From a bacterium (GTDB lineage: Bacteria; UBP7; UBA6624; JBBIMK01), in assembly GCA_037444445.1 (NCBI GenBank), contig JBBIMK010000029.1, positions 1 to 25,221 of the forward strand: DNA of 25,221 bases, in the 5' to 3' direction. The notes beneath the pieces are model-generated. The model saw only the letters and a program-made list of their open reading frames with translations. It was not told the DNA's origin and made no database searches. Below are positions 1-15,087 of the stretch, piece by piece. Position numbers and translations under genes: made by a program. The first letter of the stretch is position 1, and every line of letters begins with the position of its first letter.

Positions 1-46
1 CTTACCATGCCTTCTGGTGGCAAGGCTTGAGTTTAACACTTCACTC

Positions 47-219
47 AATCGGCCGGGGGCTTCCCCCCCGTGGGAAAACCTCCATCGCGGGTGGGGGCTG
101 GAAAGATGCCCCGAGCAACCGGGGCAAAAGGAGGAAAAAATAAAAGCGGGAGAAACCGGGAATGGGGGCAGAAGCCCCGCCCGCAGAAGCCCCGACCCGG
201 CGGGGAGGAGAGAAATGCA
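47..219 (+). promoter_or_regulatory. GC-hairpin leader element, copy A, directly 5' of the QueC-like gene
   Basis: The first half (aatcggccggggg..cgtgggaaaacctcc..gcgggtgggggctggaaagatgccccgagc..ccggggcaaaaggagg) matches copies starting at 3408 and 5192. The second half (aaagcgggagaaaccgg..ggggcagaagcccc..cgcccgc, about 142-185) matches 1819-1863. There is a stem CGGGGG 54-59 / CCCCCG 65-70. A further hairpin, ccccg-acccgg-cgggg, abuts the SD GGAGGAG at 204-210. Confidence 0.6.
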
Positions 220-852
220 ATGGCAAAGACTGTCGTGATGCTATCGGGTGGGCCCGATTCGACAACGCTCCTTGCACATCTTTTAAACCAGGGAAACACG
301 GTACGGGGAGTGGTGATTAACTACGGTCAAAACCCGCGGACTCAGGAGGTGGCAGCGGCGAGGCGCATAGCTTTGGCCTACGGCATCCCCCTCGACGTTT
401 TCGACCTCGCGGCTTTGCGGGACATGCTGATTTCTTTGACAGACCCTCCGCACATGCTCATGGACACGTGTCGCGACCCCCAGGCTCTGCTTGGCCTCGT
501 CGGGTTCTATGCGGGTGCGCTCTTGTTCGACTCCGTAGCCTACGCCGCGAACCTTCGGGATGTCCAGGATCAGCCCGGCTACCCCAACTTCTTCCCGGCG
601 GCCCAGGTCATGCTGAATACACTTCCTCCCACCCAAAATCTCACGGTGCTCACTCCCTTCATTAACATGACGAAAGCGGCCGTCCTTCAGCTTGGACAAG
701 AACTCGGTGTGGACTGGACTCTCACCTGGTCCTGCTGGAACGACGTTCCAATTCACGATGGCACTTGTGGAGGATGCATCAGGCGGCATCGAGCATTCCT
801 TGACGCCGGTATCACCGATCCGACGCAATATGCCACTTCGCCAGGTCCTTGA
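220..852 (+). CDS. QueC-like PP-loop ATPase (7-cyano-7-deazaguanine synthase family, divergent)
   Basis: The N-terminus MAKTVVMLSGGPDSTT carries the SGGxDS PP-loop. The C-terminus has a Cys cluster, SCWNDVPIHDGTCGGCIRRH, followed by GITDPTQY, as in QueC. The SD GGAGGAG at 204-210 lies 9 nt upstream of the ATG at 220. The longer ORF starting at 70 runs through the leader repeat and is unlikely to be the real start. Confidence 0.75.
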   Translation: MAKTVVMLSGGPDSTTLLAHLLNQGNTVRGVVINYGQNPRTQEVAAARRIALAYGIPLDVFDLAALRDMLISLTDPPHMLMDTCRDPQALLGLVGFYAGALLFDSVAYAANLRDVQDQPGYPNFFPAAQVMLNTLPPTQNLTVLTPFINMTKAAVLQLGQELGVDWTLTWSCWNDVPIHDGTCGGCIRRHRAFLDAGITDPTQYATSPGP

Positions 853-922
853 GCCCATCTGCCTTACTGCCGACGAGCCAGAACGGAATCAAGCGGTTAG
901 CCGCCCAAAGGAAGACTGCGTA

Positions 923-1777
923 ATGGTCAGCGAAGGTTTCACATACCGGAGCGGCGTCAGGATAGAGTACGTGGTTTGGAGGCCGGCGGGGGTTGGAGAA
1001 GTGAACCCTATCATCCTCTTGCCAGGCTTTCTGTCCTCGGGCTGGTCCGCAGAATCCACGGCGGAACAGCTTGCTACGGTGACGGTCGGTGGTCAACGGT
1101 TCCTGGTGGTGGGTGTGTCCTTGCGCGGAAGGGGCAGGAGCGCGTTCGGCCCGGCTGCAGGTTGCTCAATCGAGCATCACGTTCGCGATATTGAGGCTGT
1201 CAGATCTGAACTGGGCCTCACCCGGCCCGTCATATGCGCGTTCTCTACCTCCGTAATATATGCAATCGCTTATGCGCTCAAGCACACCGCCACTTTGAAG
1301 GGTCTCATCCTCGGTGACTATCCCCCAAGGTTTCCTCAGATTAAGGACTCTTGGGTCACGGATATTGAGCGCGGTCCCTGGTCCTTCCCGAACTGGGCTG
1401 AGGCCGAGTCATGGGCCGTGAGAACAGGATTCATCTCCCTTGAGGACATTCATCGGGCCAGGGGTCGCTGGTTCGTGGAGTCCTCCTCGGGAGAAGTGCG
1501 TCGCCTGGGTTCCCAATGGCTGCCGCGGCGGCTCCAGGCCGAAAATGCACCTGTTGACTTCAGTCACTGCCTGAAGGAGATCCGTTGCCCGGTGATGGTC
1601 CTCAAGGGTACCTTTGCTGGTTCACTCTTGAGCGACTCCGATGTGGCCCACTACGAGGAATGTGGTGCAAAAGTGGTCTGCCTTCCCACGGGTCACGATG
1701 TGTTCCGCCATCAATCCGCAGTCCCCGCGATCATGGATTTCCTCCAACAGTTAGAGAGAAGCCAAAGAAGTGCCTGA
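923..1777 (+). CDS. alpha/beta-fold hydrolase
   Basis: It has ILLPGFLSSGW (oxyanion-region-like), a nucleophile-elbow variant AFSTS, and GHDVFRH near the C-terminus. The SD AAAGGAAG at 907-914 lies 8 nt before the ATG at 923. The ORF-track start at 692 would overlap the QueC-like gene. Confidence 0.65.
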   Translation: MVSEGFTYRSGVRIEYVVWRPAGVGEVNPIILLPGFLSSGWSAESTAEQLATVTVGGQRFLVVGVSLRGRGRSAFGPAAGCSIEHHVRDIEAVRSELGLTRPVICAFSTSVIYAIAYALKHTATLKGLILGDYPPRFPQIKDSWVTDIERGPWSFPNWAEAESWAVRTGFISLEDIHRARGRWFVESSSGEVRRLGSQWLPRRLQAENAPVDFSHCLKEIRCPVMVLKGTFAGSLLSDSDVAHYEECGAKVVCLPTGHDVFRHQSAVPAIMDFLQQLERSQRSA

Positions 1778-1816
1778 CGACGGGTCATAATTTCTATTCG
1801 TTCCATCTCCTTTATA

Positions 1817-1888
1817 ATGAAAGCGGGAGAAACCGGAAAGGGAGGGCAGGAGCCCCCGCCCGCTATACGGGGCAAAAGGAGAAAAAAA
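1817..1888 (+). promoter_or_regulatory. GC-hairpin leader, copy B (partial), 5' of lipoprotein paralog 1
   Basis: aaagcgggagaaaccgg..gggcaggagccc..cgcccgc matches 142-185. It ends in cggggcaaaaggagaaaaaaaATG, as in copies C and D. Confidence 0.5.
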
Positions 1889-2431
1889 ATGAAACGAAAT
1901 GGTATAATATCTACGATGGCAGTTGTTCTGGGATTTGCCCTTCTCGTCTCCTGTTCAGGAAGTTTCAAAGACCAATTCAAAAGGTGGTGCAAAGAGCGCC
2001 ACGGTGAATTCCAGGACCTGCCCGAGTTACTGTGCGTAATTCACACGGTTCCGGATCATGCAAAAGCAAAAGACAAAAACGGAGACGGCAAACTTAATCC
2101 CAGGGGAGCGGATAACACATGGTATGTGGGTGATCCAGGGCAAAATGATGATGACGAAATCGCATATTACGACAGGACAGGCGGCAGAATTCAATGCGCC
2201 ATGGTGGTTGCCGACACCCAGGAACTTTGCACCTACAGCGGCGGGACCTGGACTGAACTCAACGGGAGATATCAGTGCTCGTCTTCACAGTGGGAATCCG
2301 TCATCCTCGCAGAAGATAGCAATGGAGATGGAATCATCCAGGCGACGGAGCACTGGTGTGAAGGGAAGGACGAGAATGGCGGTCCGAACGGGCAAGAAGC
2401 ACCGTGCCCTTATGAGGGCTGGGATTTCTAA
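1889..2431 (+). CDS. Cys-rich lipoprotein with EF-hand-type DxNxDG loops (paralog 1, intact)
   Basis: MKRNGIISTMAVVLGFALLVSC has a lipobox (LVSC). The loops are DKNGDGKLN and DSNGDGIIQATE. The conserved C-terminal signature is EHWCEGKDENGGPNGQEAPC. The SD AAAGGAG lies upstream of the ATG at 1889. Confidence 0.8.
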   Translation: MKRNGIISTMAVVLGFALLVSCSGSFKDQFKRWCKERHGEFQDLPELLCVIHTVPDHAKAKDKNGDGKLNPRGADNTWYVGDPGQNDDDEIAYYDRTGGRIQCAMVVADTQELCTYSGGTWTELNGRYQCSSSQWESVILAEDSNGDGIIQATEHWCEGKDENGGPNGQEAPCPYEGWDF

Positions 2432-2557
2432 AAGGGGTCGCCGGGGAAATCATAAAGAATAAACTCAAACAATTTTTGCCGCTTGCTGCCCTCCTTCTTG
2501 TCGGAATACCATTTAATATAAAGGGGGCGCTAGCATTTTTTTTTTGGCCGGATACCT

Positions 2558-3115
2558 ATGGATTATATTGAGTATGAATTTTTTATTAGTTACTTCTGGT
2601 ATTTCGTTCTTGTATTACTTGTGGCTGGTTTATTTCCGGGTGGTCTACGAGAGATAGGCTGGAAGAAAGAAGGCTGGTTCAGAAATCTGCTCCTGGGTTT
2701 TTTTCTTTCTATTCTCGCAAGCGCTCTGGAGGTTCTACTACTATCTGGCATTCCATATCTCTTTCCTCGGTCTGCCGGCTTTTTACCCAGTCCAGTCTAC
2801 CGGTTTCGGAATATCAGGCAAATGTCTTTGGTGGGATTCTGGTACGAACTGCTGATGCGGGGAACGTGGGTTTTGTTTGAAGAGAGTTTTGATGTTTTTT
2901 TGCTGGTCCGCCTGGAGCGAGTATTGGGGAATTCTATCCTTTCTTGCGTGCTTGTCGCTCTGCTCGTTGTTTCCTATCACATAGGGGTGGAAAATCCGTT
3001 ATTAAAGCTCACCTCAATTGGATTCTTTTCATTCGCCGGGTTAGTGGTTTTCACTCGCACCCGTCACATTGGAGCGCTAATTACCGTGCATCTTCTGGGA
3101 GATATAACAGCGTGA
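2558..3115 (+). CDS. CPBP/Abi-like polytopic membrane protein (paralog 1, divergent motif 1)
   Basis: It has multiple hydrophobic helices. The motifs are EESFDVFLLVR, SYHIG and TVHLLGDI (HxxxD). It is alignable to the ORFs at 4108 and 5878. Confidence 0.6.
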   Translation: MDYIEYEFFISYFWYFVLVLLVAGLFPGGLREIGWKKEGWFRNLLLGFFLSILASALEVLLLSGIPYLFPRSAGFLPSPVYRFRNIRQMSLVGFWYELLMRGTWVLFEESFDVFLLVRLERVLGNSILSCVLVALLVVSYHIGVENPLLKLTSIGFFSFAGLVVFTRTRHIGALITVHLLGDITA

Positions 3116-3161
3116 AGGTGAAGGTGGCGGTAAATACTGCACTCTGGTATCTGATAAGGCA

Positions 3162-3386
3162 ATGCTGAAGAAGGGTAGTTTCTGGCATTGTGCTGGCATT
3201 TTTGCCATCCTTCTCCTGTTTCTTGACTCCCTCTGGGGTGCTAAACTTTATCATATTCATTTTTATGTGACGGAGCCCCCTATATACGGCTACATAGTGA
3301 GCCTTTTGTTTACCCTCTGGGCAGTAGCCATGTGGTTTTATGGTCGGAAGGTGCTGATGAAGGAAAAGGGAGCGGGTGATGAATAA
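3162..3386 (+). CDS. small two-TM membrane protein (cassette 1)
   Basis: The ORF is hydrophobic. Its C-terminal 19 aa, AMWFYGRKVLMKEKGAGDE, are identical to the C-terminus of the ORF at 4871-5170. Confidence 0.55.
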   Translation: MLKKGSFWHCAGIFAILLLFLDSLWGAKLYHIHFYVTEPPIYGYIVSLLFTLWAVAMWFYGRKVLMKEKGAGDE

Positions 3387-3507
3387 TCTATGGAGCAGGT
3401 AAGTCCGAATCGGCCGGGGGCTTTTCGCCCCCGTGGGAAAACCTCCAGAAGCGGGTGGGGGCTGAAAAGATGCCCCGAGCGTAACGCCGGGGCAAAAGGA
3501 GAAAAAA
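3327..3507 (+). repeat. Leader/junction repeat, copy C (3' end of the small membrane gene plus a structured intergenic leader)
   Basis: 3327-3436 matches 5111-5220 with 1 mismatch in 110 nt. Stems are CGGGGGC 3415-3421 / GCCCCCG 3427-3433, GGGGC 3458-3462 / GCCCC 3472-3476, and the mutually exclusive GCCCCG 3472-3477 / CGGGGC 3488-3493. The last stem ends 4 nt before the SD GGAG at 3498-3501. Confidence 0.7.
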
Positions 3508-4075
3508 ATGAAACGAAATGGTCACCTCAAGGGGATAACGGTTCTGGCAGTTACCCTTCTTGTTTCCTGTTCAGGAGGCACATTCAAAAGGGCTTTCGGA
3601 ACCCTGTTTTGTCTAACAATTGACGCTGTTCGTGGTCCCCCTGGACGGCTATTACTATTGCACGAGAACGAATCCCACTAATCCAAACGATAAGGTCACG
3701 GGGGTTGGAAAGGACAAGAACGGGAATAATAAGGTTGATGAATGGGGAGCGGACGGCAAACCCGGGACGGACGACGACGAGGTCTGGTGTGTTCAGGGAG
3801 AAGATAATTTAACGGGTCCTCCCATACCCTGTCCTCCCTGGATTAAGCCCAGAACTGTGGCTCAAGCGGATTGCGTAGAGAACGGGGGGAACTGGTCACA
3901 ATCGGACTCTGTCTATCAATGCACCTCATCGGGCTGGGACCGGGTGTTTTTCTGGGAGGACTTGAACGGGGATGATGGCATCCAGATAGATGAGTACTGG
4001 TGTGAATACAAAGATGCCAACGGCAACCCTGATGGAGTGAAAAAACCCTGTCTGGAAAATGCAGATTGGGAGTAA
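3508..4075 (+). pseudogene. Lipoprotein paralog 2, interrupted by a +1 frame change after the signal peptide
   Basis: The ATG at 3508 encodes MKRNGHLKGITVLAVTLLVSCSGG.., which stops at 3679-3681. The mature Cys-rich domain (DKNGNNKVDEW.., DLNGDDGIQIDEYWCEYKDANGNPDGVKKPC) is open in the next frame from 3617 to 4075. The two frames overlap across a C5 run at 3637-3641. Confidence 0.7.
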
Positions 4076-4107
4076 AAAACAGGACGCAATTCCGAATTAA
4101 GTTATAA

Positions 4108-4860
4108 TTGTATCAGAGAAAGAGGCGAGGATATATAAAAAGGGGGTTAATTTTTTTACTATTTCTTCCCGCTTTGTTCCTTTACTATCTGCTGTATGGC
4201 GTCGTTCAACTTCCCTATGTAAAGGTGGGGATAATTAATGTGTTGGCGGGGGATTTTGAGGCATTTGTTCCCGAAGCGGTTATTACCTTGCTCATTGCCG
4301 CGATGTTCCCTGATGGGCTTCGCCAGGTGGGGTGGAGAAGAGACCGCTGGGGAATCAACATTCTGCTGGGGGTGCTTCTATTCGTGAGTTTCTGGCTTGT
4401 CGGGTCCGGACTCAATTATCTGGGGATGTTTTTCTTTCCGGCCTGGGTTGCCCGGTTAGGCTCCGGTAGTCCTCTCTTTCACGGCATCCTGCAACATACC
4501 CTGCTGGGAAATCTCGCTGGCTTCATTCTTTTATTTCTCAATTCCGTAGCAGAAGACACCTTTGACATTTTCCTGTTTATTCGCCTGCGGCAGTGCTTTA
4601 AGGGGCGCTTGCTGGTTCCTTTTGTGGTCGTCATCCTGATAGACGCTGTGTCTCATTTTGAGTTTGGCTTCCCCACAAGTATCGCTGCAATGAGTCACAC
4701 TTTGACCGTTTCTACCTTTGTATTCCTCAAACTGGTCGTTTTCTACTACACCCGACACATTGGAGCGCTGGTCACCTGGCATACCCTGCATAATTTCTCA
4801 TTGGACATCCACAGATATATTGTAGCGGACCTGGAGTGGATTCTCAGAGGCGGAAGATAG
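4108..4860 (+). CDS. CPBP/Abi-like polytopic membrane protein (paralog 2, divergent motif 1)
   Basis: MFPDGLRQVGWRRDRW aligns with LFPGGLREIGWKKEGW of paralog 1. The motifs are AEDTFDIFLFIR, VSHFEFG and WHTLHNF. The start is uncertain: a TTG at 4108 with no clear SD. Confidence 0.6.
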   Translation: MYQRKRRGYIKRGLIFLLFLPALFLYYLLYGVVQLPYVKVGIINVLAGDFEAFVPEAVITLLIAAMFPDGLRQVGWRRDRWGINILLGVLLFVSFWLVGSGLNYLGMFFFPAWVARLGSGSPLFHGILQHTLLGNLAGFILLFLNSVAEDTFDIFLFIRLRQCFKGRLLVPFVVVILIDAVSHFEFGFPTSIAAMSHTLTVSTFVFLKLVVFYYTRHIGALVTWHTLHNFSLDIHRYIVADLEWILRGGR

Positions 4861-4870
4861 GGAAGCGAGA

Positions 4871-5170
4871 ATGAGAAGAATCTGGGAGAATAGACTGTTC
4901 TGGGAATGGTTGGGGGTTTTGTGCTTGTTGATGACATTTGCTCATAACTTGAGACTGCAATTGTTGTTACCGGTTCATATTCCTTGCGACATAAAAAAGT
5001 ATGGGAAAATATGTGAGGTTGCGACAAGCAAACTGCCTTTATTCGGCGGTCCCTGGTTCTGGAAGCCCTACGCAACGGTAGTGGGCATTCTCTTGTACAT
5101 CTGGCTCCTCGCCATGTGGTTTTATGGTCGGAAGGTGCTGATGAAGGAAAAGGGAGCGGGTGATGAATAA
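4871..5170 (+). CDS. small membrane protein (cassette 2)
   Basis: It has hydrophobic segments and the identical C-terminal 19 aa AMWFYGRKVLMKEKGAGDE. Confidence 0.55.
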   Translation: MRRIWENRLFWEWLGVLCLLMTFAHNLRLQLLLPVHIPCDIKKYGKICEVATSKLPLFGGPWFWKPYATVVGILLYIWLLAMWFYGRKVLMKEKGAGDE

Positions 5171-5305
5171 TCTATGGAGCAGGTAGGTCCGAATCGGCCG
5201 GGGGCTTTTCGCCCCCGTGGAAAACCCTCCAGAAGCGGGTGGGGGGCTGGAACATCGCCCCGTAAAGGGTGGTAAAATATCACCCGGGGGCGAAAGGAGG
5301 AAAAA
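5111..5305 (+). repeat. Leader/junction repeat, copy D
   Basis: It is near-identical to 3327-3436 and then diverges, while keeping GGGGC..GCCCC..CGGGGG pairings and the SD AAAGGAGG before the ATG at 5306. Stem: CGGGGGC 5199-5205 / GCCCCCG 5211-5217. Confidence 0.7.
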
Positions 5306-5865
5306 ATGAAACGAAATGGTATAATATCTACGATGGCAGTAATCATTCTTATTCTTTCCTGTAGTGATCCGGGAAGAGATAAGGATTATTACATAAGGAT
5401 TATTACAAAAACAAATGCGTCTATTATGTAATGGATATGTATGAGTGGTACGAGCCGTATCCGCCCTATGACTGGGCGTGTTCTAACGGCCAGAGTCGCT
5501 ATGTTGGTCAGGACAGAAACGGAGACGGTAAATATAAGGCGAAAGGGGATCCCGATGAGCTGGACGAGAGTAAGCGTCCCGAGGTGTGGTGCCAGAACAA
5601 ACAGTCTGACGGCACCTGGAAAAACGGCTCCTGTCCATTTGCAACTATGCAGACCGCAGAAACAGAATGCACTGTCAACGAGGGTTCCTGGTCCCGGTTA
5701 TCTCCCACGCAAGCCTGCTGTGCTTTCCCTGCTGGCGACCTCGCTGTTCTCATCCACGACGATAATGAAGATAGGCTTATCTACAACACCGAGTTCCATT
5801 GCGAGGGACTTAATGAGAACGGAGAACCTGACGGGCAGGAGATAACTTGCCCGGGGGAGGAGTAA
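5306..5865 (+). pseudogene. Lipoprotein paralog 3, split into a signal-peptide ORF and a mature-domain ORF
   Basis: 5306-5431 encodes MKRNGIISTMAVIILILSCSDPG..IM followed by a stop. The stop TAA overlaps the ATG at 5431 (TAATG). 5431-5865 encodes the Cys-rich domain (DRNGDGKYK, DDNEDRLIYNTEFHCEGLNENGEPDGQEITC). The mature frame is already open from 5383 and overlaps an A5 run at 5406-5410. Confidence 0.65.
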
Positions 5866-5877
5866 TTCGGGAGGTCT

Positions 5878-6561
5878 TTGGAACGATTCAGAAAGCCTGA
5901 ATTCTATCTTCTTCTCGCTTCTATCGGAAGCGTTTTTTTAGGGGAAGCGGTATTATTGGCCTCTATACTCGTAATACCGCGAGAGTTAAAAGACCTTTAC
6001 TTTGATTTCTACTATTATTTTAAGGAAGTTACCACCTGTCTTGGATGGATTGGCATCTTTGTAAGTTTTCTTCTCCTTTCAGGATGTGCGAGGGAATATT
6101 GGAAAAGAATACCTGTGGCAGTTCTTTTCAGGGCTACCTTGACGGCAGGAATCTTCAGTGGGCTTGCATCTGTCATTTTGCTCTCTGGGGAGTTTCTACT
6201 CACGAGTGGCAAGATTCCGGGTTTTGAACTCTCGGAGGCTCCACGAGGACTCATCACAGTAGCCCTGTTCGTTTTCCGTGAGGGCTCCAGCGTAATTCTT
6301 CAGGAAATTTTGATGCGTGGCGTGTTCCTGTTTTTTCTGATGAAGGGAGGGATTCCTTCTCCTCTTGCCAATTTTTTTCAGGCCATTCTTTTTGCTCTGG
6401 CTCACCCGAGAGCCCAACGTCAGTTTTTCTGGTTTCTCTTTTATTCACTTTTTGGATGGATTATGGGCTGGTCAGTTCTGCGTTATAAGTCCCTATATCC
6501 TGCCATAATGGTTCATACTCTGGGGAACTTTTTAAGTTATGCTCTGGGCTATGAGATATAA
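5878..6561 (+). CDS. CPBP family intramembrane metalloprotease (paralog 3, near-canonical motifs)
   Basis: The motifs are LQEILMRG (EExxxR-type), FALAHP (FxxxH) and MVHTLGNF (HxxxN). It is polytopic. It starts at TTG, preceded by GGGAGG at 5869-5874. Confidence 0.8.
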   Translation: MERFRKPEFYLLLASIGSVFLGEAVLLASILVIPRELKDLYFDFYYYFKEVTTCLGWIGIFVSFLLLSGCAREYWKRIPVAVLFRATLTAGIFSGLASVILLSGEFLLTSGKIPGFELSEAPRGLITVALFVFREGSSVILQEILMRGVFLFFLMKGGIPSPLANFFQAILFALAHPRAQRQFFWFLFYSLFGWIMGWSVLRYKSLYPAIMVHTLGNFLSYALGYEI

Positions 6562-6901
6562 AGAGGCTTTTATATATTCTGTTTGGGCAATTCTCGTGTA
6601 TATTTTCTTCTTTTCCTGGATGAATGCATGGAACCCCCTTGTACAATTTACCTCAGACCCTCTCATCCAGAATACCTGGGAGCCCCTGATGGGCATGCTT
6701 CTGGGCACATTATCCCTGCTGACTTTCACCACCGTGCGACCAGACCTCAAGCCGAGACCTCTTCCCAAAATGTATGTGTACTTAGCCTACATACTGTTTT
6801 GGAGCAGTTTGATAGGGTATTTGTTAATGGTCTTGCTGTTGTTATTCCTGCGCTGGCAACATTCCGCTTTTGGGGGCCTGACCCCAAAAGGTGGTGCTTG
6901 A
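6551..6901 (+). CDS. small three-TM membrane protein (cassette 3)
   Basis: The ORF is hydrophobic and overlaps the stop of the CPBP gene. It occupies the same position as the small membrane genes of cassettes 1 and 2 but has no sequence similarity to them. The start could be 6539 or 6551. Confidence 0.45.
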   Translation: MRYKEAFIYSVWAILVYIFFFSWMNAWNPLVQFTSDPLIQNTWEPLMGMLLGTLSLLTFTTVRPDLKPRPLPKMYVYLAYILFWSSLIGYLLMVLLLLFLRWQHSAFGGLTPKGGA

Positions 6902-6945
6902 CCCCATAAATAATGTCGCTTTTGGGGGCCTGACCCCAAAAGGTG
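6865..6945. terminator. Two copies of a 29-nt hairpin unit between convergent genes (candidate bidirectional terminators)
   Basis: cgcTTTTGGGGgcctgaCCCCAAAAggtg occurs at 6865-6893 and again at 6917-6945. Each copy has a perfect 8-bp stem and a 6-nt loop. They lie between the stop at 6901 (+) and the stop at 6949 (-). There is no U-tract beyond the stem. Confidence 0.45.
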
Positions 6946-6948
6946 TCA

Positions 6949-7710
6949 TTATTCCCTCTTTCCCTCTGGAGTATAGTGTGGCAGGAGTTCTTTCAGAAGC
7001 TGGAAGGTGTTCTGGATGACTTTCAGAGTCTTTTTCAGGTCAAACTCGTGCCAGGTCATCTGGGAAGCTTCGTAAGAGGCTTTCGCCTCTGATAGGCGGG
7101 AGCGTTCATTTTCTGAAAGATGCCCGGAGGACCGGGCTATTAGAGAGGTTTCTATGGCTTTCAAAAGGGTGGCATTCTGTTCCAGGGATAGCAACAGCAG
7201 GGAGGCATTGTCTAAGATTTCCGGGTGGTTTCCGGTTCGCTCGTTGTGGCAGAGGGCACAGAAGTCTTGCACCTCTTTTGACAGGGCTACGGTGGTGTGC
7301 ATAGAGCCGTGGCAGGTGCCGCAGGTGGGTCCCCGCTGGTGTTTCTGCAGGACTTGATAGTGGGTGCTTCGCTGGAAAGCAATCCATTGGGCGCCGTGGC
7401 AGGCTCCGCAGGTTTTCGCCACCTTCTGAAAGTGTATGAGGCTGTTCTTATCCGAGGCAGGGAAAACGCCAGAATGGGCTTCTAAGAGGGCAGGCTCCGA
7501 AGGGTTTCCTCCGTGGCACCGGTCGCAGGTGATAGTTGCCCTGCCGTGGGCGGAGTCTTTCCAGCCCTCGTAAGCCCAGAAGTATTTTCCTGCCTTCTCT
7601 TTCTGTTTATGGCACTGGAGGCACGAATTTTCTCCCGTGAAACTGAATACGAAGGTCAACCCTGCCAGCCCAAAAATTCCTGCCCCCACCAGAGATTTCA
7701 GAGTATTCAT
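6949..7710 (-). CDS. pentaheme c-type cytochrome, membrane-anchored or secreted
   Basis: It has five CxxCH motifs (CLQCH, CDRCH, CGACH, CGTCH, CALCH) and an N-terminal hydrophobic signal/anchor, LVGAGIFGLAGLTFVF. Confidence 0.9.
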   Translation of the reverse strand: MNTLKSLVGAGIFGLAGLTFVFSFTGENSCLQCHKQKEKAGKYFWAYEGWKDSAHGRATITCDRCHGGNPSEPALLEAHSGVFPASDKNSLIHFQKVAKTCGACHGAQWIAFQRSTHYQVLQKHQRGPTCGTCHGSMHTTVALSKEVQDFCALCHNERTGNHPEILDNASLLLLSLEQNATLLKAIETSLIARSSGHLSENERSRLSEAKASYEASQMTWHEFDLKKTLKVIQNTFQLLKELLPHYTPEGKRE

Positions 7711-7810
7711 TCTCGCTCACCACCTATGCTTTTACCAGAGCACCCGTGAAAATGCAAGGATGAATGAAAAGACCTGGTGGGGAATTCAGACGCAGGGAAT
7801 CACGCTTCAT

Positions 7811-7840
7811 TTGACAGGCTCTTTTCCTAACGGTTATAAT
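7811..7840 (+). promoter_or_regulatory. sigma70-type promoter for the exbB operon
   Basis: TTGACA at 7811-7816, an 18-nt spacer, then TATAAT at 7835-7840. It lies 35 nt upstream of the exbB ATG. Confidence 0.6.
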
Positions 7841-7874
7841 GGTAGTTAGTGAACGGGAAGGAGGAATAGAGGTT

Positions 7875-8534
7875 ATGGGATTCGGGCGAGTGTGGGAAAT
7901 TTATCAGAATGGCGGTCCGGTGATGCATTTCCTTCTCCTCTGCTCCATCATCGGCGTGACGATTATCATTGAACGAGCGAGAAGCCTCTGGAAAGCCACT
8001 GTGAATACGAGAATTCTTATGGACAAGGTCAAGGCGCTGATTCTTCAGCAGAACGAGACCGCATTAAAATTGCTTCTGGAGGAAACGCCCGGACCGGTGT
8101 CTCGTGTCCTTTCCACCGGGTACTCGTTGAAAAATCTCCCGCGGGAGGAAATCGTGGAAGGGGTGAAAGAAACAGCCATCAACGAGGTTGCCCGAATGGA
8201 ACGCGGGTTGCCCACGCTATCCACACTGGTGACCGTTGCCACCCTTCTGGGTCTTCTGGGAACCATCCTGGGCTTAATCCAGATTTACAATGTCATCTCC
8301 GGGGGGAGAATCGGGGATGCAGAAGCCCTGGCGGCCGGGATTGCGCAGGCCCTTATCACCACTGCCACGGGTCTATCTATTGCCATCCCTTTCTTGATTG
8401 CTCATAATATCCTCCGGCAGAAAGTGGACAGCCTGACGGATGAAACGGAGCGAAGCCTTCATGAGTTCATCAATTTCCTTAAACTGGAGGCGATAGGGCA
8501 TGGTGAAAAAGTTCGCGAGACCTGGAGCGAATAG
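7875..8534 (+). CDS. exbB: MotA/TolQ/ExbB proton-channel protein
   Basis: It has the TolQ/ExbB-type layout, with GLLGTILGLI and GIAQALITTATGLSIAIP in the C-terminal helices. The SD GGAAGGAGG precedes the ATG at 7875. ExbD and TonB genes follow. Confidence 0.85.
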   Translation: MGFGRVWEIYQNGGPVMHFLLLCSIIGVTIIIERARSLWKATVNTRILMDKVKALILQQNETALKLLLEETPGPVSRVLSTGYSLKNLPREEIVEGVKETAINEVARMERGLPTLSTLVTVATLLGLLGTILGLIQIYNVISGGRIGDAEALAAGIAQALITTATGLSIAIPFLIAHNILRQKVDSLTDETERSLHEFINFLKLEAIGHGEKVRETWSE

Positions 8535-8943
8535 TTCCACTGTTAGATTGGAACTGACTCCTCTGATAGACACGGTATTCAACCTGCTGATTTTCTTTGC
8601 CGTCTCCACGACGCTGATTTCATCCCGGACGGGATTACCGGTGGATTTGCCTCAAGCAAAGACGGCAGAAACGCAGAAATCTAAGGTTATGGTTTCTGTG
8701 GACCGGGATGGGCGAATTTTCTACGAAGAATCCCCGGTTACCGCTGAAGAGCTGGAAGTTCGGCTGAAACAGGCATTCGCACAACAGCCCCAGGTTCTGG
8801 TGATTGTGAATGCTGACCGACGCGTGGTGTATGACCGTGTGGTTCAGGTGCTGGATGTGGCAAGGAGCGCGGGTATCAGCAACCTCGCCCTGGCGGTGAA
8901 GAAGGAGAAACCCGCAGAAGAATCCCCTACAAAAACCCCATGA
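8500..8943 (+). CDS. exbD: biopolymer transport protein ExbD/TolR
   Basis: It contains LELTPLIDTVFNLLIFFAV and the later VIVNADRRVVYDRVVQVLD, both typical of ExbD. Confidence 0.85.
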   Translation: MVKKFARPGANSSTVRLELTPLIDTVFNLLIFFAVSTTLISSRTGLPVDLPQAKTAETQKSKVMVSVDRDGRIFYEESPVTAEELEVRLKQAFAQQPQVLVIVNADRRVVYDRVVQVLDVARSAGISNLALAVKKEKPAEESPTKTP

Positions 8944-9530
8944 ACCCCCGGGAAAAAGAGAATCTGTTGGAATCCTTTATTGCTTCCTGCATCTTTCATT
9001 TCATTCTCTTTCTGCTGTTGGCGGTTTTGATTCCCCCCCAGATTCTGAAGGCGGGAGAGGTGATGGGGTTCGTGCGTATCGGTGTGTGGGAGATAGAGAC
9101 GGGAATTCCTGGTGAGCCTTCCGCTACAAAGAAGAGGATGCCTCGGCCCCGGGAGGAGAAGGGGAAGCAGAAAACCCTGACTGCACAACAGGGGAAAACA
9201 TTGGCGGAGGCAGGTGCAGAAGGGGCGAAAGAGAAGGGATATAATCCGGCGGATTATCCGGGCGACCATGAGGCGGGGCTGTTATCCTCCGCCCCCGCCA
9301 TCTACCCCAAAACGGCTCAAAATCTGGGCTACCAGGGCACGGTCAGACTCCGCGTCCTCGTGGATGTGAACGGCCACGCAAAGGAAGTGAAATTGCTGAA
9401 ATCCTCCGGATATGAAATCCTGGATAAAGCGGCAGTTCGTTCGGTGAAAAACTGGCGTTTTGACCCGAAAGTGTTCAAAGGGAAAAAAGTGGAAGGGTGG
9501 ATAGAAGTAGAAGTGCCGTACACGCTGTGA
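8940..9530 (+). CDS. tonB: energy transducer TonB
   Basis: It has an N-terminal anchor, a charged linker, and a TonB C-terminal domain (YPKTAQNLGYQGTVRLRVLVDVNGHAKEVKLLKSSGYEILDKAAVRSVKNWRF). The start overlaps the exbD stop (ATGA). Confidence 0.8.
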   Translation: MNPREKENLLESFIASCIFHFILFLLLAVLIPPQILKAGEVMGFVRIGVWEIETGIPGEPSATKKRMPRPREEKGKQKTLTAQQGKTLAEAGAEGAKEKGYNPADYPGDHEAGLLSSAPAIYPKTAQNLGYQGTVRLRVLVDVNGHAKEVKLLKSSGYEILDKAAVRSVKNWRFDPKVFKGKKVEGWIEVEVPYTL

Positions 9531-11563
9531 ACTCCTCGCTGTCCTCCCGATGGTTTATCACTGGATTATTTCTATGGCTGGCTATGGGTATTTTTGGGGT
9601 TCTACAGGCCTCAAGCAGTGGAGAGGAAAAAGCCCTTCCGGAGGTTTCTTTTGAAGGCTTGATGACTGTGGAGAATGAATTTGTTCGCCTGCTGGTGAAT
9701 GTGGACACCCTGGATGCGGGGCGATACTCCCTGGAAACCACCGGAGGGGACCCGGCTCGCCCCGATGATGATAAGCAGATTCTCCTTTACGGACATCCTC
9801 CGATGCAGATGACCAGGCCCTGGACTTCTTATACAACGGTTCGGGTGGATGATGTGAATTATGCCTTCGGCGGGGAAACGAAGAGGCGAGCGGGCGCTTC
9901 TACACGCTTCGGCTTCCTTTCCCAGCCCCCCACCCGCCAGGAAGATGGTTCTATCCTCACTACCACCACCTTCGGCGATATACAGGTCACCCAGCGCCTC
10001 TCCCTGGCTCGTAGCCCCACCACTCGCATGCTGGATTCCCTTCAAATTGAATACCGGGTCGTAAACTCCGGAATCCAGCCGCATACCGTGGGCTTACGCA
10101 TCATGCTGGACACGATGCTGGGCACCAACGATGGAGCACCTCTACGAGCAGGGGCGGAATCCATTACCGCAGAAAAATGCTTCTCCGGTGATGCAGTGCC
10201 GGATTTCTTCCAGGCATTTGATTCCCTCTCTGAACCTCATGTAATCGCCCAGGGAACTCTGAGGGGTGAAGGGCTTACCCCCCCGTCTGCTTTGTATATC
10301 GCCAACTGGGGCACCCTCGCGGATGAGCCCTGGGAAATGGAATGCCGGGAGGGCGAAAGCCTGATTCGGAAGGGTGAGGAGGAAGTGGACAGTGCGGTAG
10401 CGCTATATTATAGCCCCCGAACCCTGTCTTCCGGCGAATCGTTCACCATTCGCACCCTGTATGGCCTGGGTGGCATTACCACCACGCCGGGGAAGCTTCT
10501 GCTGGGTATTACCGCACCGATGGAAGTGGCGTTCAAGCCCAGAGGCACCCCTCCCTTCACGGTGGTGGGCTACCTGGAGAATACGGGCGGGTTCCTCTCC
10601 CGCAATACCGCTTTACACCTTCGTCTCCCGCCAGGTTTATCTCTCCTCAGGGGAGAAACGGACATCCCTGTGGGGGATTTCTCCGGCGGGCAGGCCTTCC
10701 AATATGCCTGGCAGGTCGTCCCTGACGGGAAGGCTTTCGGTCTGCAAGACTTTCAGTTGAACGCTACATCAGAAAGTTATGAGGAAAATACAGCCAGAAG
10801 AGGGATTTTCATCCATCCACCGCCCACGCTGAATCTCGTCATCACGGCGCCAGAGCAACTCTCGGTGAAAGATACCACCCTGGAAAATAATCCCTTCGTG
10901 GTGAAAGCCACCCTCACCAACCCCGAAAGTATCCCAGTGAACCACCTCCTTTTGTCCATTTCTCTGCCCGAAGGACTTTCCCTTCCCCCTCCGGAGAAGC
11001 CACAGAAATTCCTGTCGGAATTAGAGCCAGGAGAACTGGCGGAATTCTCCTGGAAGGTGAAAGCCCTGGAAGGGTTAAGCGAGGTGGAATATTCGGTGAC
11101 AGCGGAGTCGGAAGATATTTTTCCAGCCACCGGCAGAAAAAGTATTTTTATCCCTTCCATCTATCCCCGCCTGGCTTTGTCTCCTGCCTCCATCACTTGC
11201 CCGGTGGGTGAATATTTTTACCTGGATTTGCTGATAGAAAAGGTGTCGTCTCTCTCCTCAGGGCAGTTCACCCTCACCTACGACCCTTATCAAATACGCC
11301 TCGTCATGGTCCGCCCCGGAACCCTTTCTTTGAGAAATGGCTTCAAAATGACCTCCCTGCATCGGGAACCCGGCAAACTCTCTTTCTCCTTTCTGATTTC
11401 CCCCGATACCCCGCTGGACACCTGGGAAACGCTCATCCGCCTGTACGCCAGAGCCCTGCAACCCGGCTCCACAAAATTCTCACTGAATTCCTGGGAGTTA
11501 AAGCAAGGAGATACGCTTCTGGACCTGCCCTTTCGCAATGCCAGTATTACGATTTTCAAATGA
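9527..11563 (+). CDS. large secreted/surface protein with Ig-like middle modules and a C-terminal cohesin-like module
   Basis: The signal-like N-terminus is RWFITGLFLWLAMGIFGVLQASS. The C-terminus, ..ITCPVGEYFYLDLLIEKVSSLSSGQFTLTYDPYQIRLV.., fits the pattern I associate with cohesin domains. The start is either GTG 9527 (GTGA overlap with the tonB stop) or GTG 9497. Confidence 0.7.
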   Translation: MNSSLSSRWFITGLFLWLAMGIFGVLQASSSGEEKALPEVSFEGLMTVENEFVRLLVNVDTLDAGRYSLETTGGDPARPDDDKQILLYGHPPMQMTRPWTSYTTVRVDDVNYAFGGETKRRAGASTRFGFLSQPPTRQEDGSILTTTTFGDIQVTQRLSLARSPTTRMLDSLQIEYRVVNSGIQPHTVGLRIMLDTMLGTNDGAPLRAGAESITAEKCFSGDAVPDFFQAFDSLSEPHVIAQGTLRGEGLTPPSALYIANWGTLADEPWEMECREGESLIRKGEEEVDSAVALYYSPRTLSSGESFTIRTLYGLGGITTTPGKLLLGITAPMEVAFKPRGTPPFTVVGYLENTGGFLSRNTALHLRLPPGLSLLRGETDIPVGDFSGGQAFQYAWQVVPDGKAFGLQDFQLNATSESYEENTARRGIFIHPPPTLNLVITAPEQLSVKDTTLENNPFVVKATLTNPESIPVNHLLLSISLPEGLSLPPPEKPQKFLSELEPGELAEFSWKVKALEGLSEVEYSVTAESEDIFPATGRKSIFIPSIYPRLALSPASITCPVGEYFYLDLLIEKVSSLSSGQFTLTYDPYQIRLVMVRPGTLSLRNGFKMTSLHREPGKLSFSFLISPDTPLDTWETLIRLYARALQPGSTKFSLNSWELKQGDTLLDLPFRNASITIFK

Positions 11564-11642
11564 TAATCCGCTCTACGATGAACTCCACAGGGAATTTACC
11601 CGGAGGTTGCGTTCTGGATAAAAAAAGAAGGAGGAGAGAAGT

Positions 11643-12263
11643 ATGAGAAATTTTCAATCCTGGTTAATCGTAGCGGTGATGGGGGTCACGGTTGTTTCAC
11701 GCTCCCTCTGGGCTCAGACTCCGAAGGACATCCCTCCCGACCACTGGGCATATAAGATGGTGAAAGAACTGCTCCAGAAGGGGTATTTCAGCCTGTACGA
11801 CGATGGCACCTTTAAAGGGGATAAAGCGGTGGACCGGCTCACCCTCGCAGGCATCGTTTCCAAACTCCTGAGTGAAGTGGGGAAGAAAGAGATTCCCACC
11901 ATATCCAAACGAGAACTGGAGGACCTGAAAACGCTTTCAGAGGAATTCAAGGACGAAATTATTGATTTCAAGGAAAAATCCGCCGCCCTGGAGACTCGCC
12001 TGAAAAAAATGGAGGAAGAGCAAAAACTTCTGAATGATTCCCTCACCCGGATTGTGGATGAAACAGGGGAAATGATGAATAAACTTGCCAGCGATTTAGA
12101 AGACCTGAAAAATGTTCAAAAGCAGGACAAACTGGAACTCCAGGCGAAGATAGAGAGTTTACGCGACGACCTGGAGAAACAGAAGCGAGCGAACCGCAGA
12201 GCTCATTCCACTATGTGGATAGGGATTATCGTTGCCTTCGTAGCAGGTCTCGCCACCAACTGA
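11643..12263 (+). CDS. SLH-domain protein with a coiled coil and a C-terminal TM anchor
   Basis: It has a signal peptide ending SLWAQTP and an SLH motif (DIPPDHWAYKMVKELLQKGYFSLYDDGTFKGDKAVDRLTLAGIV). The middle is heptad-rich (EDLK..LEKQK). The C-terminus is WIGIIVAFVAGLA. The SD is AAGGAGGAG. Confidence 0.85.
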   Translation: MRNFQSWLIVAVMGVTVVSRSLWAQTPKDIPPDHWAYKMVKELLQKGYFSLYDDGTFKGDKAVDRLTLAGIVSKLLSEVGKKEIPTISKRELEDLKTLSEEFKDEIIDFKEKSAALETRLKKMEEEQKLLNDSLTRIVDETGEMMNKLASDLEDLKNVQKQDKLELQAKIESLRDDLEKQKRANRRAHSTMWIGIIVAFVAGLATN

Positions 12264-12461: not shown

Positions 12462-13058
12462 ATGAAAAGAAGGAAAACGCAAAGGATGAGAATCACCGGG
12501 GTAGTAACGAGAACTGGGGATGGGGGTGAAACTTCTCTCATCGGTGGGAAACGCGTCCTGAAATCTTCTCTTCGCATCGTCGCCGTGGGGGAAGTGGATG
12601 AGTTGAACTCCCTTTTGGGGGTGATTTTAGTCAAGAATCCCCCCGCTTTCCTGCGAAATTCCGTTTTACGCATCCAGAACGAGCTCTTCCTGTTAGGAGC
12701 GGACCTGGCTTCGCCGATGGAAGTAGAAGCCCCCCGCATTCAAGCCCGGCAGGTCAACCGGATGGAGAAAGAGGTGGAAAAAGCCCTGCAGAGGCTTTTG
12801 CCGTTAAAGGAGTTCATTCTGCCCGGGGGTGGGGAAGTGGGGTCGCTTTTGCATGTGTCCCGGGCGGTTTGTCGTCGCGCTGAGCGTGCCGCCGTGGCTC
12901 TCTCCCAATCGGAAACCCTCAACCCTTTTGTTCTCCCTTACCTCAACCGCCTCTCGGACTGGCTGTTCGTCTACGCCCGCTTATCCAACCTTCACGAACG
13001 CATTCCGGAAGTCTCAGCCACATTTCCGAAGCCCCCTGTCAGGAAGAGGAGCACGTAG
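12462..13058 (+). CDS. ATP:cob(I)alamin adenosyltransferase, PduO type
   Basis: TRTGDGGETSLIGGKRVLKSSLRIVAVGEVDELNSLLG is the characteristic N-terminal signature. The SD GGAAGGAG at 12447-12454 lies 7 nt before the ATG at 12462. Confidence 0.88.
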   Translation: MKRRKTQRMRITGVVTRTGDGGETSLIGGKRVLKSSLRIVAVGEVDELNSLLGVILVKNPPAFLRNSVLRIQNELFLLGADLASPMEVEAPRIQARQVNRMEKEVEKALQRLLPLKEFILPGGGEVGSLLHVSRAVCRRAERAAVALSQSETLNPFVLPYLNRLSDWLFVYARLSNLHERIPEVSATFPKPPVRKRST

Positions 13059-13157
13059 ACAGTAAACAGGGTGCCGAACTGAACATATCCCTGTCCAGAC
13101 TCCACTGCTGTATTTTGTTTTGAACATTTTCATCATCACATTGATTCCCCTGTTCTA

Positions 13158-14198
13158 TCAGTTCCTCGTTCCATTCTTCAAAGCCTGTTCTGCCATCCGA
13201 TAGGCGATGCGAACCGGGGAAACACCCTCCCTCTCTGACTCCTGAAAAATCCTTTGAAGGCGTGAAAAAATCCGCATGATTTCTGTCGTATTGTCCCGGA
13301 TGCCTTTGAGGTAGAAGTTGGCGCCCTGGATGAGGGCACCGGCGTTTATGACGAAGTCGGGCGCATACAGGATGCCCAGATGGTGCAGTTCATCTCCCAG
13401 TTCATCAGCCTTTAGAACATTATTGGCACATCCGGCAACGATGGGAGCGCGCAGTTTCTCCACCGTAGAGGAGTGTATCACACCGCCGAGGGCGCAGGGG
13501 GAAAATACTGTCGCAGGGAGGGACAGGATTTCTTCCGGCGTCACGGGCACTGCGTGAAACTCCTTCACCGCTGCTTGAACCTTCTCAGCCTGAATATCCG
13601 CTACCAGGAGGCGGGCGCCTGCGGAATGCAATCTCTTCGCCAGCGCATATCCTACATTTCCCACGCCCTGTAAGGCAATGCGCAGATTCTGAAAACTCGG
13701 AGTCCCCAAAGTATGCTCCAGGCAGGCTTTCATTCCCTCAAAGACGCCCAGCGCCGTGGCATCATTCAAATCCCCCACCTTCTCCACGGATTCATCCACC
13801 ACAAAAGAGGTCTCTTTCCTCATTTCCTCTAAATCCTTCAGGGTGACCCCCACATCCCGTCCTGTAAAGAACTTGCCCCTCAGGCTTTGCACCACCTGTC
13901 CGTAAAGATGAAAAAGAGTCCTTCGGTCCATACCGGGAGTATTCACTATCACCGCTTTTCCTCCACCGCAGTTCAGGCCTGAAACTGCGGCTTTGTAAGA
14001 CATCCCTCTCGCCAGCCGAAGGGCATCCTGAAGTGCATCCTCCTCCCGGGCATAAGTCCACAGGCGTGTGCCGCCGAAAGCAGGACCCAGAACTGTGCTG
14101 TGTATTGCCAGAAATGCCAGAAATCCCAGCCTTTTTTCCTCCACTCGCATGACCTCTTCATACCCCGGAATAGACAGGTGCTGAACGAAAAGCGTCAT
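13158..14198 (-). CDS. Leu/Val/Phe dehydrogenase (Glu/Leu/Phe/Val dehydrogenase family)
   Basis: It contains IHSTVLGPAFGGTRLWTY, DALRLARGMSYKAAVSGLNCGGGKAVI and a Rossmann motif, LQGVGNVGYALA. The internal Met (MTLFVQHL..) gives the typical length. The ORF-track start is at 14255. Confidence 0.88.
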   Translation of the reverse strand: MTLFVQHLSIPGYEEVMRVEEKRLGFLAFLAIHSTVLGPAFGGTRLWTYAREEDALQDALRLARGMSYKAAVSGLNCGGGKAVIVNTPGMDRRTLFHLYGQVVQSLRGKFFTGRDVGVTLKDLEEMRKETSFVVDESVEKVGDLNDATALGVFEGMKACLEHTLGTPSFQNLRIALQGVGNVGYALAKRLHSAGARLLVADIQAEKVQAAVKEFHAVPVTPEEILSLPATVFSPCALGGVIHSSTVEKLRAPIVAGCANNVLKADELGDELHHLGILYAPDFVINAGALIQGANFYLKGIRDNTTEIMRIFSRLQRIFQESEREGVSPVRIAYRMAEQALKNGTRN

Positions 14199-14277
14199 TT
14201 TTCCCCACCCGGAAAATTGTAATATGAAATTCACGGGTGAGAGGGTTCCTTCCACATAATGGTATAATAAAAAGACG

Positions 14278-14709: not shown

Positions 14710-15087
14710 CCTGCAGGCGCAGGAGATTCGCAGTGAAATGAGCAGGTAGAATACGCCCATCAGAAAATAACCCACTTCATAGATGCACGGATGAATCATC
14801 GTCAAAATGGGCGGATGAGTGATTCCCCCCCACCGTTTTCGGGGGGCACCCCGTTTTATTGAAAATCAACCTATACTCGGAAATGTAGGGAAAAACATAA
14901 AGAAATGTTATAAATCTTCCCTGTCACAATACTTCTGAAAATCATTCTGAAATTCCCTTCTCATCGCACAAAAATGATTTATAAGTTTTGGTAAGTTTTT
15001 CTAAACTACGAAGTGGTTTTTCACCCCTATTGGTAAAGAATCTTTTAGTATAGTAACTTGATGATGGCGAAAGGACACTTTTCTGAG

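Follow-up and report, generated by a model that had tools for sequence, protein, structure and literature searches.

A tandem array of a rare three-gene envelope module encoding a cysteine-rich lipoprotein, a CPBP-related membrane protein, and a small membrane protein

We analyzed a 25,221-nucleotide (nt) stretch of bacterial DNA (contig JBBIMK010000029.1), referred to here as the window; positions are those of the window unless another locus is named. The region from 1817 to 6901 holds, in tandem, three copies of an envelope module of three genes that is rare and undescribed. Each copy, or cassette, encodes a lipoprotein, a multi-pass membrane protein, and a small membrane protein, in that order and on the plus strand (1889-3386, 3508-5170, and 5306-6901; cassettes 1, 2, and 3, numbered 5' to 3'). 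A preliminary description of this DNA had reported the same order repeated three times, and this was borne out at all of these coordinates. Because the order of the open reading frames (ORFs), the homology of the lipoproteins, and the identity of the junctions all agree, the three-cassette layout is real and far beyond chance. Neither the lipoprotein family nor the three-gene unit is described in the libraries searched. We infer that the three products work together at the envelope. We tentatively favor, with less than even confidence, a reading in which the CPBP membrane protein is a dedicated partner of the adjacent lipoprotein, most likely cleaving or maturing it, with the small protein as a third subunit.

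The genes are tightly packed. CPBP3, the membrane protein gene of cassette 3, overlaps small gene 3 by 23 nt, and the remaining gaps are 10 to 126 nt (Table 1). All three genes of cassettes 1 and 2 belong to one type, type A, and all three of cassette 3 belong to another, type B.

The lipoprotein domains align over their full length, and 29 columns of the alignment are invariant; the other two copies are 44% and 35% identical to copy 1. The tblastn searches between the window copies gave E values of 1e-11 to 1e-20. These values fit the preliminary description, in which the lipoprotein paralogs were homologous yet strongly diverged. No model in Pfam or NCBIfam matches the lipoprotein. A word-indexed search of 5.8 billion proteins returned four lipoproteins, namely, the three of the window and one from the Joint Genome Institute (JGI). 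When 1.84 billion representatives were searched exhaustively with HMMER, 22 proteins reached E ≤ 1e-3, and 16 of them reached E ≤ 1e-10; the 22 include the three window lipoproteins and one repeat-protein artifact (P0025). The lipoprotein profile found no relative in the genome collection, and a search of viral contigs and plasmids found none either. The profile and structure searches that the preliminary description had proposed thus matched no well-known housekeeping family, and its view that these are not housekeeping genes agrees with the absence of a Pfam or NCBIfam family and with the 22 matches among 1.84 billion representatives.

Full-length members of the family have a lipobox, about eight Cys in a mature part of ~160 residues, an N-terminal C-x3-GG, and a first DxNxDG loop. 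Their conserved C-terminal half follows the pattern CE..GG.W....C....D.N.DG.I...E[YF][HW]CE..DENG.P.G....CP.[DE]E. The lipobox ([LVI][ASTVI][GAS]C) reads LLVSC in lipoproteins 1 and 2 and ILSC in lipoprotein 3, predicting lipidation, and similar lipoboxes occur in P0004, P0008, P0010, P0016, P0019, P0021, and P0024. The second loop fits the EF-hand pattern DxNxDGxIxxxE in all three copies (DSNGDGIIQATE, DLNGDDGIQIDE, and DDNEDRLIYNTE). Across the family, the first Asp of this loop is invariant and its fifth position is nearly so. The first loop scores 14.1 bits with Pfam EF-hand_1, below the cutoff of 25.4, and the loop flanks were modeled as strands rather than helices in a model of poor quality. 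From these residues, calcium binding and four disulfides are plausible for the lipoprotein.

The lipoprotein ends 1 to 11 mostly acidic residues past the last Cys (for example, CPYEGWDF and CPGEE). Its C terminus has no hydrophobic segment and therefore no Cys motif followed by a transmembrane helix and a basic tail. We considered a CAAX-like box after the last Cys and rejected it, given a tail of variable length (1 to 11 residues) and an even number of Cys, which suggests that the last Cys is in a disulfide. AlphaFold2 gave mean predicted local distance difference test (pLDDT) values of 47.5 for lipoprotein 1, from a four-sequence alignment, and 44.4 for membrane protein 2. A Foldseek search of the PDB with the lipoprotein model found nothing at E ≤ 0.001, and the model was discarded. 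In the PDB sequence search of the lipoprotein, a Pumilio match (E = 0.007) was rejected as an alignment over a low-information stretch, and the C-type lectin CLEC4C (E = 0.23 to 1.6) was not significant and is a lead only.

CPBP3 matches the Pfam model PF02517 with 50.3 bits against a cutoff of 22.4 (E = 3e-13). Membrane proteins 1 and 2 are homologous to each other (BLASTP E = 1e-21; 32% identity), and neither matches PF02517 even at E ≤ 10. The third membrane protein has no detectable similarity to the first two, either pairwise (E = 0.22 and 2.7) or against a two-sequence profile. When membrane proteins 1 and 2 were aligned with their relatives in the metagenomic loci L002 and L003, three of the five members of this type A alignment matched PF02517, with a best E value of 1.7e-5. 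Comparison of the type A and type B profiles with hhalign gave E = 9e-4 and a probability of 23%, with Glu, His, and His-x3-Asn/Asp in register. On these profile comparisons, we accept membrane proteins 1 and 2 as divergent CPBP relatives. The preliminary description had labeled all three membrane proteins as CPBP/Abi-like paralogs. The label applies directly to the third and reaches the first two through relatives only, whereas the homology within the window holds for the first and second but not for the third. A PDB sequence search for the membrane proteins found nothing.

The first Glu of the CPBP motif EExxxR has a catalytic role (PMC11980579), and this motif is intact in neither type. CPBP3 has QEILMR, in which Gln replaces the first Glu, as in L005, L012, L014, and L095. 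Type A keeps the Glu and lacks the Arg at +5 (EESFDV in membrane protein 1 and EDTFDI in membrane protein 2). The FxxxH motif is FALAH in CPBP3, VVSYH in membrane protein 1, and DAVSH in membrane protein 2, so that the Phe is present in CPBP3 only. The HxxxN/D motif is HTLGN in CPBP3, HLLGD in membrane protein 1, and HTLHN in membrane protein 2. Both His residues and the Asn/Asp are retained in all three proteins.

The small membrane proteins are predicted to have one or two helices. The likeness between small proteins 1 and 2 is concentrated in the last 33 residues (70% identity), and small protein 3 aligns with neither. Small protein 2 has a relative in L002, the small protein of that locus (E about 4e-6). 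Small protein 3 shares the motif F-[YF]-[SA]-W with the small proteins of L005 and L095.

The module occurs in 11 further metagenomic loci: L001, L002, L003/L004, L005, L006-L008, L009, L010, L011, L012/L013, L014 with L095/L096, and L097. In all 11, a multi-pass membrane gene follows the lipoprotein gene, with a second lipoprotein paralog in between in L006-L008. A PF02517 match is on record in 8 of the 11; in L012/L013 and the second module of L097, it belongs to the gene after an intervening membrane protein gene. Where the contig extends far enough, a small membrane gene of 52 to 99 codons comes next, in L002, L003/L004, L005, L006, L095, and L097, and L012/L013 instead carries a partial paralog of the 207-residue membrane protein at this position. 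Stops and starts within the module abut or overlap, which suggests translational coupling. The survey of related arrays that the preliminary description had proposed shows one to three modules per locus: most have a single one, L003 and L097 carry two each, L095 carries at least two, and the window carries three. When metagenomes were scanned with the type A membrane profile, a sister copy of L002 was the only match. One related protein belongs to the unclassified "bacterium JZ-2024 1," and one related locus comes from groundwater of the serpentinizing Oman ophiolite.

Several of these loci adjoin ribosomal RNA (rRNA) genes. In L006, the module is flanked immediately upstream by a truncated 16S gene (9056-9903), which matches the full gene at 100% identity over its first 758 nt, and immediately downstream by a complete 16S-23S operon (12803-17538). 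In L003, a 16S-23S unit (3880-9539), with a 23S ~1 kb longer than the Rfam model, ends 270 nt 5' of the lipoprotein gene. Fragments of 16S lie just upstream of the module in L007 (1-342), L008 (2-276), and L014 (1-275), as found with Rfam, and in L001 (1-143), as found by blastn only; L097 has rRNA sequence beside the module at 10004-10089. Because L003 and L006 have 16S genes that share 95.5% identity, this position may be inherited synteny in one lineage. The window itself contains no rRNA piece.

The types recur outside the window. Lipoprotein 3 is 48 to 53% identical to P0004 and P0008, with 51% for P0004, against 33% for its best match within the window, and CPBP3 is 33% identical to the L005 protein, with no detectable relative within the window. 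Lipoprotein 1 is 63% identical to P0013 and 42% to P0009, against 42% to lipoprotein 2, and lipoprotein 2 is 48% identical to P0009 and P0010, against 42% to lipoprotein 1. Type B (lipoprotein 3, CPBP3, and small protein 3) matches L005, L001, and L095, and type A (lipoproteins, membrane proteins, and small proteins 1 and 2) matches L002 and L003. Because the lipoproteins and the cassette 3 genes have closer relatives elsewhere, the array is not a recent diversifying triplication. The preliminary description had called it diversifying; the copies are instead closer to relatives elsewhere (48 to 63%) than to one another (33 to 42%). Judged by these identities, the array is a collection of old types, A1, A2, and B. 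Only the leaders, the signal peptides, and the 3' ends of the small genes are near-identical between cassettes, and these parts were homogenized later within the genome.

The homogenized DNA is clearest at the junctions. Junctions 1-2 (3295-3461) and 2-3 (5079-5245) are 90% identical over 167 nt, beginning within the small genes, and the likeness extends to the ribosome-binding site and start codon. The 40 nt around the start are identical in lipoprotein genes 1 and 3. The motif CGGGGCAAAAGGAG is present in 4 copies, where chance predicts 0.42. The near-identical junctions reported earlier therefore stand for 1-2 against 2-3 but not upstream of cassette 1, where only the last 30 to 75 nt are shared. 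A fourth, fuller copy of the element, outside the region described earlier, lies at 47-145, upstream of a QueC-like gene, and has ATA at the position of the cassettes' ATG. The first 30 nt of a sub-element B are 87% identical between 139-168 and 1816-1845. A GCCCC...GGGGC hairpin ends all four copies a few bases 5' of AAAGGAG; in junction 2-3, its stem is retained and its loop is altered by an inserted hairpin. Rfam had no match in the whole window at the gathering threshold and only a spurious Xist match in positions 1-7100 at E ≤ 1; therefore, the shared leader is not a known riboswitch or RNA family. Folding z-scores of the leader, from four copies in one genome, were unremarkable (-0.2 to -2.3), and an exact-pattern scan of JGI metagenome contigs for the leader motif found no occurrence. 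We infer that the junction element is a shared 5' leader or an intercistronic processing or stability element, homogenized by gene conversion.

At the other end of the array, perfect palindromes CGCTTTTGGGGGCCTGACCCCAAAAGGTG stand 52 nt apart between small gene 3 and a convergent multihaem cytochrome c gene (6949-7710, minus strand). This pair (6865-6945) is probably a two-way terminator.

The preliminary description did not note that two of the three lipoprotein genes are broken and that membrane protein 1 has a frameshift in addition. There is one lesion of the slippage type per cassette: a T10 run in the first, a C5 run in the second, and a 14-bp tandem duplication in the third. In lipoprotein gene 2, the signal peptide and lipobox (3508-3681) and the domain (3620-4075) are in different frames. 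Deleting one C from the C5 run at 3637-3641 yields a 188-residue lipoprotein 2 in which the first two Cys are 15 residues apart, as in lipoprotein 1. In lipoprotein gene 3, removing one copy of the 14-bp unit (ATAAGGATTATTAC, 5379-5406) yields 181 residues collinear with the intact P0004 and P0008. Membrane protein 1 as annotated lacks the first helix found in all relatives. That helix is encoded upstream (2476-2545) in another frame behind the T10 run, and T9 would yield a 212-residue protein. As assembled, an intact type A set requires lipoprotein 1 combined with membrane protein 2, and no other combination provides one.

Lesions also occur in related loci. The lipoprotein gene of L095/L096 lacks its 5' half and is intact in L001, from the same JGI sample; L095 800-1568 and L001 612-1080 share 95% DNA identity over a stretch that begins midway through the lipoprotein gene and extends into the CPBP gene. 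The truncated L095 gene is preceded by another CPBP gene, 89% identical to that of L014. L001 and L095 are the only close pair, with ~90 lipoprotein codons in common, and the window paralogs are saturated. The short forms P0013 (L003) and P0012 (L097) consist of the conserved C-terminal half only. A class I S-adenosylmethionine-dependent methyltransferase gene (L003 12801-13379; L097 4296-4931) lies directly upstream of each, a pairing found in two loci of different module types. In L006-L008, the second lipoprotein paralog has an in-frame TAG, identical in three assemblies, and another in-frame TAG splits the CPBP gene in L006 and L007; L008 ends before that gene. The two TAG stops of L006 (11028-11030 and 11794-11796) are the same in L007, which comes from an independent assembly. 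The 11 genes near the L006 module end in six TAA, five TGA, and no TAG, and reading TAG as sense in L006 did not clearly lengthen other ORFs. These TAGs are possibly recoding, read-through, or stable pseudogenes.

We suggest that the lipoprotein would be exported, lipid anchored, and bound at the inner membrane by the neighboring CPBP protein. The CPBP protein would most likely cleave or mature the bound lipoprotein, with the small membrane protein as a third subunit. This reading follows other pairs in which one CPBP protein stands beside one substrate. The name CPBP stands for CAAX protease and bacteriocin processing (PMC11980579, PMC7387801). The CPBP protein MrtJ sits in a two-gene neighborhood with a single target protein (JDVT-CTERM), and the myxosortase MrtX cleaves lipidated MYXO-CTERM proteins in experiments (PMC11980579). 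Like the Mrt systems, the module has a CPBP protein beside one exported, Cys-bearing, lipid-modified partner (lipidation being predicted here), a sporadic distribution, and retained His and His-x3-Asn/Asp motifs. Unlike them, it scores below the NCBIfam cutoffs (MrtJ, 24.9 against 75 bits; MrtS, 23.3 against 130), its partner bears a lipobox at the N terminus and lacks a Cys-helix-basic sorting signal at the C terminus, the unit includes a third gene, for a small membrane protein, and type B has Gln for the first Glu of EExxxR. Rce1, the type II CAAX prenyl protease of PF02517, resembles CPBP3 in its score with that model and in FxxxH and HxxxN; it differs in that the module has no prenylation context and QExxxR for EExxxR, and membrane proteins 1 and 2 alone miss the model.

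Some CPBP proteins, such as LnsB and SpdC, are not proteases, and LnsB, which is needed for lipoprotein N-acylation in Staphylococcus aureus, shows that a CPBP fold lacking clear catalytic motifs can take part in lipoprotein tailoring (PMC7387801). By this description, LnsB is like the module's membrane protein in acting on lipoproteins with diverged catalytic motifs (PMC7387801). LnsB differs in that its targets are all lipoproteins, that it works with an NlpC/P60 enzyme, and that no single neighboring lipoprotein is its partner.

Several points count against a dedicated maturation partner. The interaction is predicted from gene context, and the AlphaFold models are poor, with the low pLDDT values given above. 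The lipoprotein has a normal lipobox, so a special peptidase would be unneeded, and it lacks the C-terminal Cys-helix-basic signal of known CPBP sorting substrates. Catalysis is uncertain because the CPBP3 type has Gln for the first Glu and type A lacks the Arg. Finally, an intact CPBP gene beside a broken lipoprotein gene is unexpected if the CPBP protein serves maturation only, unless the breaks are recent.

This last point bears on an alternative that we consider somewhat unlikely, in which the array is an effector/immunity system. Here, the lipoprotein would be a released or contact-delivered antagonist, and the Abi-like CPBP protein, perhaps with the small protein, would protect the producer. 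In Firmicutes, Abi/CPBP proteins are known to provide self-immunity to bacteriocins. On this reading, additional cassettes whose lipoprotein gene is broken would be orphan immunity genes. Cassettes 2 and 3 indeed have broken lipoprotein genes beside intact CPBP genes, and L095/L096 has a 5'-truncated one beside an intact CPBP gene, whereas L001, at 95% DNA identity, is intact. The short forms in L003 and L097, the several diverged types per genome, and the rare, sporadic distribution point the same way. The module also resembles Firmicutes self-immunity loci in that the CPBP gene directly follows that of a small exported protein, several diverged pairs occur per genome, and some CPBP genes are orphaned beside broken partners. 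It differs in that the partner is a 160-residue lipoprotein, predicted to be disulfide rich, rather than a double-glycine-leader peptide, has no recognizable bacteriocin or toxin domain, and is found in a diderm-type genome.

Other observations do not fit an effector and its immunity protein. Pfam, NCBIfam, PDB-sequence, and fold searches of the lipoprotein found no toxin or delivery domain of weight, and no secretion or delivery genes lie nearby. No phage or plasmid link of the module was found among the viral contigs and plasmids searched. The C-terminal half of the lipoprotein is conserved and its N-terminal half is variable, the reverse of polymorphic toxins. CPBP genes are broken too, in window cassette 1 and in L006. 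Lesions number about six in lipoprotein genes against two in membrane protein genes, with ~17 genes each, an asymmetry that is not significant. Relatives that are 42 to 63% identical show ordinary divergence.

The homopolymer lesions could also be sequencing or assembly errors, with the cassettes intact except for the duplication. This explanation, which we judge unlikely, bears on the lesions only and not on function. Two of the lesions do lie in homopolymers, which are error hot spots, and removing one base gives proteins collinear with relatives. However, the other long ORFs of the contig (1263, 688, and 470 residues) are unbroken while crossing many 5- to 7-base homopolymers, so widespread sequencing error is unlikely. 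The 14-bp tandem duplication is atypical of read errors, and the independent lesions of related loci are reproduced in separate samples.

A bolder proposal, which seems to us quite improbable, combines several of these elements into a new envelope conflict system. In this scenario, a calcium-dependent lipoprotein effector would be neutralized or processed by its cognate CPBP protein, and the genome would collect several specificity types. Slippage would turn the effector genes reversibly off and leave the protective membrane genes on. If this were true, the position beside rRNA operons or truncated 16S genes in related genomes would be a preferred insertion or expression site.

Least probable, and in our view very doubtful, is phase variation of surface lipoproteins, in which the three lesions would be reversible slippage switches, one per cassette, and the conserved leader/signal-peptide region would serve expression and recombination. 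In its favor, each of the three lesions is of a slippage kind, no homopolymer in the window is longer than T10, exactly one of three lipoprotein genes is in frame, the leader/signal-peptide DNA is near-identical between copies whose mature parts are 33 to 44% identical, and the A6 to A8 spacers between ribosome-binding site and ATG vary among copies. Against it, C5 is short for a contingency tract, the evidence is a single assembly for which no sister strain was found, lesions in related loci are of other kinds (TAG stops and a 5' deletion), and slippage is also the commonest source of ordinary pseudogenes. The Vlp lipoproteins of Mycoplasma form a variable multigene family with a conserved 5' region and homopolymer switches. 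The array is similar in its tandem lipoprotein genes, near-identical leader/signal-peptide DNA, diverged mature parts, and homopolymers near 5' ends. Unlike in the Vlp family, every lipoprotein gene here comes with membrane protein genes of its own, the mature parts represent old types that are conserved rather than repeat-driven variants, and switching is hypothetical.

Table 1. Features of the array and its leader elements
Feature	Position	Strand	Description
Fourth junction/leader copy	47..145	+	Hairpins and Shine-Dalgarno-like GGAGG; from repeat families, alignment, and motif count
Leader sub-element B	139..217	+	Directly before the QueC-like start; repeat family
Cassette 1 leader	1816..1888	+	Sub-element B, GCCCC...GGGGC hairpin, AAAGGAG, A8 spacer
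Lipoprotein 1	1889..2431	+	180 residues; sole intact lipoprotein gene; lipobox LLVSC, 7 further Cys, loops DKNGDGK and DSNGDGIIQATE
Membrane protein 1, type A, CPBP-related	2476..3115	+	Annotated ORF 2558-3115, 185 residues
T10 run at frameshift of membrane protein 1	2536..2545	+	Longest homopolymer in the 25-kb window
Small membrane protein 1	3162..3386	+	74 residues, two hydrophobic segments
Conserved junction 1-2	3295..3507	+	Small-gene 3' end; hairpins GGCCGGGGGC/GCCCCCG, GGGGGC/GCCCC, and GCCCCG/CGGGGC; AAAGGAG
Lipoprotein gene 2, frameshifted	3508..4075	+	Frame 1, 3508-3681; frame 2, 3620-4075
Membrane protein 2, type A, CPBP-related	4108..4860	+	250 residues, intact; motifs AEDTFD, SH, HTLHN
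Small membrane protein 2	4871..5170	+	99 residues; loop bears a Cys pair
Conserved junction 2-3	5079..5305	+	Junction 1-2 element plus extra hairpin in the loop of the last stem
Lipoprotein gene 3, type B	5306..5865	+	Broken by 14-bp tandem duplication, ATAAGGATTATTAC x2, 5379-5406
CPBP3, type B	5878..6561	+	227 residues; Pfam Rce1-like, 3e-13; motifs QEILMR, FALAH, HTLGN
Small membrane protein 3	6539..6901	+	120 residues; 23-nt overlap with CPBP3
Two identical 29-nt palindromic hairpins	6865-6893, 6917-6945	.	Repeat and inverted-repeat search

Upstream of the array, a PP-loop gene at 217-852 is QueC-like (Pfam QueC, 3.6e-29) and falls below the TIGR00364 equivalog cutoff. This gene and an alpha/beta-hydrolase gene (together 217-1777) are preceded by the cassettes' leader element. 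Because the pair adjoins the module in no related locus, its link to the module may be regulatory or accidental. Downstream, a TonB/ExbB/ExbD-like cluster (7839-9530) indicates a diderm envelope. The region 9497-12263 encodes a 688-residue exported protein with weak NEW3 and cohesin-domain matches and a 206-residue protein with an SLH domain followed by a coiled coil; together with the cluster nearby, these hint at an S-layer or SLH-anchored envelope.

The dnaA gene lies at 15167-16579, ~8 kb downstream of the array. In a species-representative genome set, the best matches of its product were 44 to 48% identical and came from Acidobacteriota and other metagenome-assembled genomes, with no close relative in that set. 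From 17400 to 25221, a low-GC island (~35%, against 50 to 58% elsewhere) carries defense and toxin genes. Their products are a PIN-domain protein (17726-18187), a type IIG restriction-modification enzyme of 1263 residues (18387-22178), a toxin of the MazF/PemK kind (22968-23306), and a Lon-type ATPase resembling BrxL (23291-24727); no further BREX gene is visible in the window.

The array would be a new conflict or surface-variation system if immunity retention or on/off switching explains why broken lipoprotein genes stand beside intact CPBP genes. Otherwise, it would be a lineage-restricted envelope module of modest general interest. The lipoproteins form a new small Cys-rich family that has loops of the calcium-binding type and is confined to uncultured bacteria about which little is known. 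CPBP proteins abound in prokaryotes, but a partner or substrate is known for only a handful. The module provides a conserved case, with one CPBP protein, one adjacent lipoprotein, and one small membrane protein. Because at least two types co-vary, cognate specificity can be tested directly by partner swap.

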